Shown here: positions 38,252 through 40,294 of the stretch, piece after piece
Position numbering within the stretch: position 1 is the stretch's first letter
How the letters are laid out: each line of letters starts with the position of its first letter
Made by a program: the position numbers and the translations under genes
Assembly: GCA_964390595.1 (NCBI GenBank)
Contig: CAYMIA010000003.1
Span: 17,727-81,726, forward strand
Source of the DNA: an uncultured Gammaproteobacteria bacterium
Lineage (GTDB): Bacteria; Patescibacteriota; Microgenomatia; Daviesbacterales; UBA10151
Direction: 5' to 3'
Length of the DNA: 64,000 bases
Notes under the pieces: model-generated
Told to the model about the DNA's origin: nothing
Seen by the model: only the letters and a program-made list of their open reading frames with translations
The model's database searches: none

Positions 38252-38692
38252 CTAAACGTCTAGAATGGCTTGTTTGGCATGAGTTTGAATAAATCTTTTT
38301 CTAGGAGCCACCTCATCACCCATCAACATAGTAAACACCTCATCAGCTGCTACCGCATCTTCAATGTCAACTTTCTTTAGGATTCTATTTTCCGGATTCA
38401 TAGTTGTCTCCCATAGCTGATCTGGATTCATCTCCCCCAAACCCTTATACCTTTGTATAATAATAGTTGCGCCTTTTTTAGGAGCTGGTGCTGCCTCCCC
38501 ATCTGCAGTTAGGCCATCGCCAGCAGTTGAACTAGGCAATGCTACATCATCAGTTGCTGGAGTGACTATAGATCCTCCCAGCGATTTCACAATCTTATCT
38601 CTCTCTTCATCAGAAAAAGCATATTGAAACTCCCTCCCTTTTTGCACTTTATACAAAGGTGGTTGAGCGATATAAATATACCCCAGGTTCAA
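38252..38692 (-). CDS. gyrB: DNA gyrase subunit B, C-terminal 146 aa, same frame as the upstream part
   Basis: [10 protein letters not shown]...[25 protein letters not shown]...FIQTHA. Starts 4 codons after the TAG, at a TTG. Confidence 0.8.
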
Positions 38693-38704
38693 AAGTTCGG
38701 GTAA

Positions 38705-40294
38705 CTATCTAAAAATAAAAGTTAGCAATAAAGTTCGGATATGTGCCCCATCCACATCAGCATCAGTCATAATAATAATCCGGTGATAGCGCACCTTATC
38801 ATATGCCACTGTATCTCCAATTCCAGTTCCCAGCGCAATCACCAAGTTTTTAATCTCCTCAAACTCCAAAATCTTATCTAAACGAGCCCGCTCGGTATTT
38901 AGAATCTTACCTTTTAGTTTTAAAATAGCTTGAGTTTTTCTATCTCTACCCTGTCCAGCACTTCCTCCAGCACTTTCTCCCTCAACCAAATAAAGCTCTG
39001 AATTAGCTGGATCTTTCTCCTGACAATCCATCAACTTACCAGGCAAACTGGCCCCTTCCAAAGCCCCTTTTCTAATGACTGAATCTTTAGCAGCTCGAGC
39101 AGCCAATCTAGCCCTAGCAGCGAGCAACACTTTCTCAATCACTTTTTTGGCTTCCTGAGGATTTTCTTCAAAAAAAGTATCCAATCCTTCTTTAACAGCT
39201 TGAGAAACAATTGGTGCTACTTCAGCGTTGCCCAACTTATCTTTTGTTTGAGACTCAAACTGCAGATTTTCTGAGTTCATCTTGATCGCCACTACTGCAG
39301 TTAACCCTTCCAAAGTATCATCCCCAGTTAGGTTCTCATCCTTTTCTTTTAGATATCCTTGGCGCCTGGCATAATCATTAATCGCCCGTGTTAGCGCAGT
39401 TTTAAAACCAGTCAAATGAGTCCCCCCATCTTTGGTCGCTTGGACATTAGCATATGACTCAACATTAGACGTAAAAGAATCCGTATACTGAATAGCTACC
39501 TCAACGTCGACATTTTCAAGTGATCTGTGAACATAAATCGGAATTGAGTTAATCAAAGCTTTGTTTTTATCCAAATGGCGGACTAAAGCAATGATTCCTG
39601 AGTCGAAATAGTAATTAATCTCCAGATCTGACTCTTCGTCATATAAGTGGAAAGATAATCCAGCGACCAAATAGGCCCGATTCTTAACTTCTCTTAAAAC
39701 TGTTTCCCATTTTGGCTCGATTACCTGCAAAATCTCTTTGTCCGCTTTAAAGGTGGTACGCACACCTGATTTAGTCTTCCATTTAAAATGGTAATTAAAA
39801 TCAGCATAAGTTTTAACCTCCCCTACTGGCGCTTTTGGAGTACCTTGGCTGTATTCTTGAAAATAAGTTTTACCCGAACGCCTAGTTTCAACCCGCATAT
39901 ATTCGGATAGTGCGTTCACAGCCGATGCACCGACTCCATGCAGCCCCCCAGAGACTTGGTAAGCACCTTCACCAAATTTACCTCCTGCGTGTAAAATAGT
40001 CATTGCCACCTCCAGAGCTGACTTACCCACCTTTGGATGAATCTCCCAAGGAATTCCATAACCATCATCAGCTACTGTCACATAGTAATCCTTATGCAGA
40101 GTAATCCAAACATTAGAACAGCGCCCAGCCATCGCTTCATCAACTGAATTATCAATGATCTCTTTGATCATCACCCAAAGGCCGCGCTCATCTGTTGAGC
40201 CGATATACATTCCCGGGCGTTTTCTAACAGGTTCAAGCCCCTCTAGAACTTGGATCTCTTTGGCGCCGTATTGATTTGGATCTTGTTTTGACAC
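38705..40294 (-). CDS. gyrB: DNA gyrase subunit B, N-terminal 529 aa (ATPase, transducer, Toprim), ending at an in-frame TAG
   Basis: [30 protein letters not shown] (Toprim). Ends ...[19 protein letters not shown]. Confidence 0.85.

Follow-up and report, generated by a model that had tools for sequence, protein, structure and literature searches.

The gyrB gene of a Candidatus Daviesbacteria genome (Patescibacteria, candidate phyla radiation, CPR) contains a TAG stop codon within its reading frame, in a 64-kb stretch of DNA that was analysed as a whole and is hereafter called the window. Gyrase is essential, and a true null allele should therefore not reach the consensus of a population. How, then, did a stop codon come to stand inside this gene, and could a complete GyrB still be made from it? 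The comparisons presented here point to a single wrong base as the probable answer.

Architecture and conservation of the interrupted gene

Minus-strand translation of the gyrB frame, from the GTG at 40294 to the TAG at 38254-38252, revealed exactly one internal stop (Table 1). The ORF listing accordingly divides the gene into 38705..40294, of 529 aa with a GTG start, and 38252..38692, of 146 aa with a TTG start; the two share one frame, their starts lying a multiple of three apart (40294-38692 = 1602 = 3x534). On the coding strand the stop stands in the context ...ACT TTT ATT TTT AGA TAG TTA CCC GAA CTT TTG AAC CTG GGG..., where four codons separate it from the first canonical start of the C part, the TTG at 38692, and on the plus strand the discrepant base is the C at 38705.

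Table 1. Coordinates of gyrB, its internal stop and the neighbouring genes in the window
Feature	Position	Strand	Description
gyrB	38252..40294	-	Read-through of 680 codons plus terminator; HATPase_c, DNA_gyraseB, Toprim (residues 433-544), DNA_gyraseB_C
In-frame TAG, codon 530	38705..38707 (38707-38705)	-	Tyr (TAT/TAC) in relatives; discrepant base is the coding-strand G
gyrB N part	38708..40294	-	529 codons, GTG start at 40294; separate 529-aa protein P0026 in the public record
gyrB C part	38252..38704	-	150 codons, same frame as the N part
TTG	38692-38690	-	Start codon of P0121, listed in the public record as a 146-aa protein of its own
Natural gyrB terminator	TAG 38254-38252	-	Directly after the conserved ...AILDV end
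gyrA	33416..36082	-	888 aa, intact; GyrB partner subunit, same gene run
holB	40399-41130		First gene of the run holB, gyrB, murA, orf142, gyrA
murA	36877-38226		Same gene run, after gyrB
orf142			Same gene run, between murA and gyrA

Pfam matched HATPase_c, DNA_gyraseB and Toprim in the N part, the Toprim match ending at profile position 80 of 96, and DNA_gyraseB_C in the C part. When Tyr was inserted at codon 530 of the read-through protein for Toprim and NCBIfam matching, Toprim ran uninterrupted over residues 433-544 and the NCBIfam GyrB model NF004189 was matched end to end (residues 3-680 versus profile positions 4-641 of 641) with 868.9 bits for a cutoff of 740. The score against the TIGR01059 equivalog, 837.1 bits, lies under its cutoff of 882.4, a divergent match of the kind that one would expect for a CPR bacterium. 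The window gene therefore has the full domain set of a GyrB and passes a curated model cutoff, and what it lacks is a single uninterrupted frame, due to the TAG at codon 530. Compared with bacterial GyrB in general (NF004189 / TIGR01059; E. coli 6rks, 7z9c), it shares the complete domains (HATPase_c, transducer, Toprim and GyrB_C), lies likewise near gyrA, and is 76-81% identical to its best homologs, the GyrB of Candidatus Daviesbacteria; the relatives examined are uninterrupted at a Tyr codon, whereas the window gene has one TAG there.

Sequence conservation across the stop is far beyond chance. The window gene retains every one of the 42 near-invariant C-terminal columns (those conserved to 97% or more among 114 relatives), together with 226 of the 229 near-invariant N-terminal ones, and gyrB otherwise looks fully selected. 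The lesion is single, the C-terminal columns are kept and gyrA is intact, all of which speaks against a pseudogene. The original prediction of one in-frame TAG between two co-framed and conserved halves is thus borne out by the translation, the ORF listing and the NF004189 match. No other broken gene was found where relatives permit comparison (27-30 kb and 33-47 kb of the window), Pfam matches throughout the window cover complete domains, and its 64 kb otherwise contain no frameshifts and no other premature stops.

Several further features of the window were recorded. A stretch of ~ 58 aa in its GyrA (35293-35468, minus strand) is unaligned with the GyrA of L053 and L054 and may be a lineage-specific insertion; the Pfam DNA_topoisoIV match in this GyrA is split into two stretches. 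The plus strand between 16770 and 27119 encodes secreted or anchored proteins that combine an N-terminal membrane anchor with CBM60 and/or dockerin domains (16770-18524, 19867-22695 and 22722-25673), followed by the cohesin-domain proteins 25735-26388 and 26388-27119; together these genes form a cohesin-dockerin set in a Daviesbacterium. Type IV pilus genes, in a large set of a kind typical of CPR bacteria, occupy 41116-55083 (plus strand) with two T2SSE ATPases, T2SSF, several N-methyl pilins, a prepilin peptidase, PilX-like, PilM and PilO genes. This set starts in back-to-back arrangement with holB and lies directly upstream of the holB-gyrB run. Finally, ~ 960 bp at 13230-14193 lack any ORF longer than 74 aa, and neither a tRNA nor, even at E<=1, an Rfam match was found in them; their folding is not distinctive (z = -1.08), and the gap is unusually long for a tightly packed genome.

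Codon 530 among relatives

The column of codon 530 is occupied by Tyr in 111 of 114 full-length homologs (Phe in 2, His in 1), and the codon itself, read at 70 GTDB species-representative loci, is TAT in 44, TAC in 24 and CAT in 2, i.e. TAT or TAC in 68/70 species-level loci. The closest relative (L001) has ATTTTTAGATATTTACCAGAA at the site where the window has ATTTTTAGATAGTTACCCGAA. Because the site reads AGATATTTA in this relative versus AGATAGTTA in the window, the lesion is one coding-strand T>G change (plus-strand A>C at 38705), turning TAT into TAG and Tyr into an amber codon. The Gln position assigned to the stop in the original prediction holds for the alignment with E. coli GyrB, where the stop faces the Gln of ...TFFYR-Q-MPE... 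(E. coli GyrB structures), but not for the clade, in which these codon counts indicate that the ancestral codon is Tyr (TAT/TAC), not Gln, and that the codon lost by TAT>TAG is a Tyr one.

The original prediction had also named a sense codon and an intact gene in relatives as the observation that would count against it, and this is what relatives display: a stop at codon 530 occurs in 0/70 species-level loci and 0/114 full-length proteins. Likewise, no in-frame stop was found anywhere in gyrB in 160 unselected loci (80 from species representatives, 80 from metagenome contigs), among which 6 have an intein near residue 445 and 2 have frameshifts. The 120 best protein matches include a sole truncated homolog, P0026, which is the source record itself (1 member, 1 NCBI contig, 108,408 bp long) and whose 529 aa are identical to the N part of the window gene, the C part being recorded as a separate 146-aa protein on the same contig. 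The 114 matches of 640-710 aa are uninterrupted; the 120 also include five longer ones, four of them intein-bearing.

No gyrB relative above ~ 83% identity was found in any collection searched (genomes, contigs and protein fragments). The best match was 83% in a scan of GTDB species representatives for a sibling gyrB, 81% (non-self) for the full-length GyrB against a collection of 5.8 billion proteins, and 70% (non-self) against the same collection for a 176-aa fragment around the stop, chosen to catch short contigs. A protein-seeded metagenome scan gave at best 59% among the matches listed, on generic motifs, and 0 metagenome contigs matched an exact DNA pattern whose wobble positions had been set to N. 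With no match above ~ 83%, the population has therefore been sampled once. One lead towards a sister contig, the second member of the murA cluster (P0123), was discarded: the 90%-identity cluster of the window MurA is represented by this unrelated 45-aa protein, which comes from an unrelated 3.5-kb contig (L081), and the cluster is a clustering artefact, not a relative.

Inteins interrupt gyrB near residue 445 in the related CPR genomes L073, L074, L101, L145, L150 and L154, and gyrA inteins are present in L026 and L033; intein-bearing proteins among the relatives are P0032, P0046, P0088 and P0105. The window gyrB and gyrA are without inteins.

Broken gyrB genes were nevertheless encountered in other assemblies, at positions other than codon 530. 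Frameshifts at short nucleotide runs interrupt the gene in L082 (3357-3375) and L084 (2029-3469), a scaffold N gap breaks it in L083 (3390-3435), and L122 and L124 carry frameshifts as well (CPR/metagenome assemblies). Annotated as two proteins in public records, these five look like assembly artefacts. As in the window, an essential gyrB is called there as two proteins on a long contig, but through frameshifts or N gaps elsewhere in the gene, whereas the window has a base substitution. The lesions in L082, L084 and L083 also explain P0203, P0206 and P0231, short GyrB proteins from the C-terminal end that lie on long contigs and were considered as recurrent natural splits; they were rejected as such because of these frameshifts or N gap elsewhere in the gene. 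Technical lesions of gyrB occur in CPR assemblies, and in-frame stops are rarer.

Termination and decoding at TAG

Among the 58 ORFs of at least 120 aa listed in the window, 57 were counted, omitting one that overlaps a longer ORF, and they terminate in TAA (31), TAG (15) and TGA (11). The context TAGT, the same four bases as at the internal gyrB stop, is found at 10 of the 15 TAG terminators, and gyrB's own terminator is one of these. The ORF 5801..6580, which has a pseudouridine synthase family match, ends in TAG, as had been reported for rluA at 6578-6580. No other conserved gene of the window contains an internal TAG, a check that the original prediction had suggested. Besides gyrB, a TAG stands between substantial ORFs of one frame in a single case, 16770-18524 and 18528-19844, and these are separate genes, both having an N-terminal membrane anchor of their own. 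All other frame pairs divided by TAG look non-coding, and 8225-8440, considered as a further internal-TAG case, looks intergenic.

These observations bear directly on a genome-wide reassignment of TAG, by an alternative code or pyrrolysine, which has nothing in its favour besides the single codon. TAG ends 15/57 ORFs, including gyrB at its conserved C-terminus, in-frame TAGs do not recur, and the only other substantial TAG-split pair is two genes. The window contains no tRNA genes, so no tRNA-CUA within it, and pyrrolysine-pathway families were not named in Pfam scans of 56 of its 58 ORFs of at least 120 aa. Terminator usage refutes this reading for practical purposes and we give it next to no credence, in line with the original view that TAG is not globally recoded. 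The known reassignment in Patescibacteria, UGA to Gly (code 25) in Absconditabacteria and Gracilibacteria, is genome-wide and relies on a dedicated tRNA (10.1101/2024.03.08.584096); it shares with the window the phylum and a stop where an amino acid is expected, but it affects another codon (UGA) in another lineage, while in the window TAG is a normal terminator and one codon is affected. TAG-recoded phages similarly have stops at amino-acid sites, but TAG still terminates normally in the window.

A real TAG in a working gene would instead imply that enough ribosomes read UAG as sense to yield full-length GyrB. This could be the work of a suppressor tRNA with a CUA anticodon, e.g. one derived from tRNA-Tyr or tRNA-Gln, whose gene lies on a phage or in another part of the genome, or else of near-cognate misreading. 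The cell would then tolerate the nonsense allele, possibly at a lowered gyrase dosage. The 150 downstream codons, in frame and perfectly conserved, are consistent with this, Tyr insertion would restore the wild-type protein, and the part of the genome covered by the tRNA search was the 64 kb of the window. Bacteria are also known to have in-frame stops that are under purifying selection: Belinky et al. 2021 (PMC7918605) described them in functional prokaryotic genes, using a two-genome criterion that excludes sequencing errors. The window gyrB resembles these cases in its lone nonsense codon, in a conserved gene and one substitution from sense, but its stop is absent from any other genome and, as a singleton, lies below that standard. 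Against suppression or readthrough also stand the window without tRNA genes or any matched Rfam family, the TAGT context, which is the preferred context of real TAG terminators in this genome (10/15), and the lack of other conserved window genes with an internal TAG. A stretch of 121 nt that spans the stop and the sequence behind it (38720-38600) folds no better than shuffled sequences (z = +0.13), and back-up stops are not closer after TAG (median 11 codons) than after TAA (10.5) or TGA (8), hence not enriched. As for programmed readthrough, the stop is not conserved in relatives, and neither a leaky context nor a downstream structure was found. Amber suppression or readthrough, one of the options originally raised, thus finds no support within the window, be it as tRNA, Rfam match or RNA structure, and we regard it as unlikely. 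Its more specific form, in which codon 530 (Tyr530) of the only gyrB would be amber and the Daviesbacterium would survive at low GyrB dosage, by means of unusually leaky RF1 termination or of a suppressor tRNA inserting Tyr or Gln and encoded on a phage or outside the window, appears more doubtful still.

The stop could alternatively be genuine and define a naturally split GyrB, in which translation would end at UAG and re-initiate at the UUG at 38692, 12 nt downstream, giving 529-aa and 146-aa polypeptides that assemble with GyrA. The in-frame TTG noted in the original prediction is indeed present four codons after the stop, and the gene caller of the public record gives two proteins. This TTG has no SD-like pairing (duplex energy +0.1 kcal/mol), but only 8/57 window genes have one, and because the genome rarely uses SD sequences the test is uninformative; with 49/57 genes lacking an SD, its absence is not disqualifying. 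However, the break lies within the Toprim fold (433-544; the N part ends at profile position 80 of 96) and not between domains, a restart at TTG would lose five conserved residues (Y-LPEL), no relative is split at codon 530, and the other "split" gyrB genes in CPR assemblies are frameshifts or gaps at other positions. With no ATG, no SD and a single base changed, there is no sign of adaptation or of an evolved start signal, and a natural split is very improbable. Regarding translation starts in general, SD-like pairing is seen at 8 of the 57 ORF starts only, and many ATGs are preceded, by a few to ~ 15 bases, by a TATAAT-like box (e.g. upstream of 36591, 5366, 11888, 60167 and 38226), which suggests leaderless or very short-leader mRNAs.

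Origin of the stop and its significance

The TAG is probably a one-off base error in the consensus, or a minor or unfixed variant picked by the assembler. Under this explanation, the real gene would be an ordinary uninterrupted gyrB of 680 codons with Tyr (TAT) at codon 530, and the G that makes the TAG would be one erroneous base in the consensus deposited for a once-sampled metagenome-assembled genome, arising from a base-call or consensus error or from the assembler's choice of a minor or unfixed variant. No special decoding would be needed: ribosomes would translate gyrB without a break, and the normal GyrB so made would pair with GyrA, whose intact gene lies 2 kb downstream. The lesion of one step, its uniqueness to this record, the lack of decay, the normal use of TAG as a terminator and the technical gyrB lesions seen elsewhere make this the most likely account, and that the G is an artefact, as opposed to a mutation in living cells, is what these sequence comparisons most likely indicate. 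Sequencing or assembly error had been the first of four unranked options in the original prediction; we infer that it is the most likely of them, the relatives' codon and the uniqueness of the stop both fitting it. Several points nevertheless weigh against a wrong base. The window shows no frameshift and no other premature stop, which argues that errors are rare in this assembly, and a consensus built from short reads seldom contains substitution errors. In addition, in-frame stops have been reported in functional bacterial genes (PMC7918605).

The same base change could also be real and non-functional, a very recent or unfixed inactivating mutation caught by chance, for instance because coverage was very low, because the template was amplified or came from a single cell, or because one of the copies in a polyploid cell was sequenced; the consensus would then hold a lethal or strongly deleterious allele and not the state of a viable population. 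The single lesion, one base from the ancestral codon, and the lack of secondary decay in gyrB or gyrA agree with such an event, but they form the same sequence pattern as a technical error, and in a gene as essential as gyrase such an allele would not be expected to prevail in a population of the size needed to assemble a 108-kb contig. We consider a recent inactivation rather unlikely, to a degree close to, and if anything beyond, that of suppression. Nothing here departs from known kinds: if real, the TAG would be a singleton nonsense allele of a known type, and we found no report in the literature of an amber codon in a gyrB of Patescibacteria.

Were the TAG both real and fixed, the locus would be a natural essential gene dependent on amber suppression in a reduced-genome symbiont and would inform how stop-codon reassignment begins, a prospect that nothing found here supports. 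If the TAG is an artefact, as we favour, the finding matters for curation only: the public record splits an essential gene into proteins of 529 aa and 146 aa, so that scores for completeness and marker genes would come out lower, and entries wrongly annotated as "toprim domain-containing protein" could arise from it.
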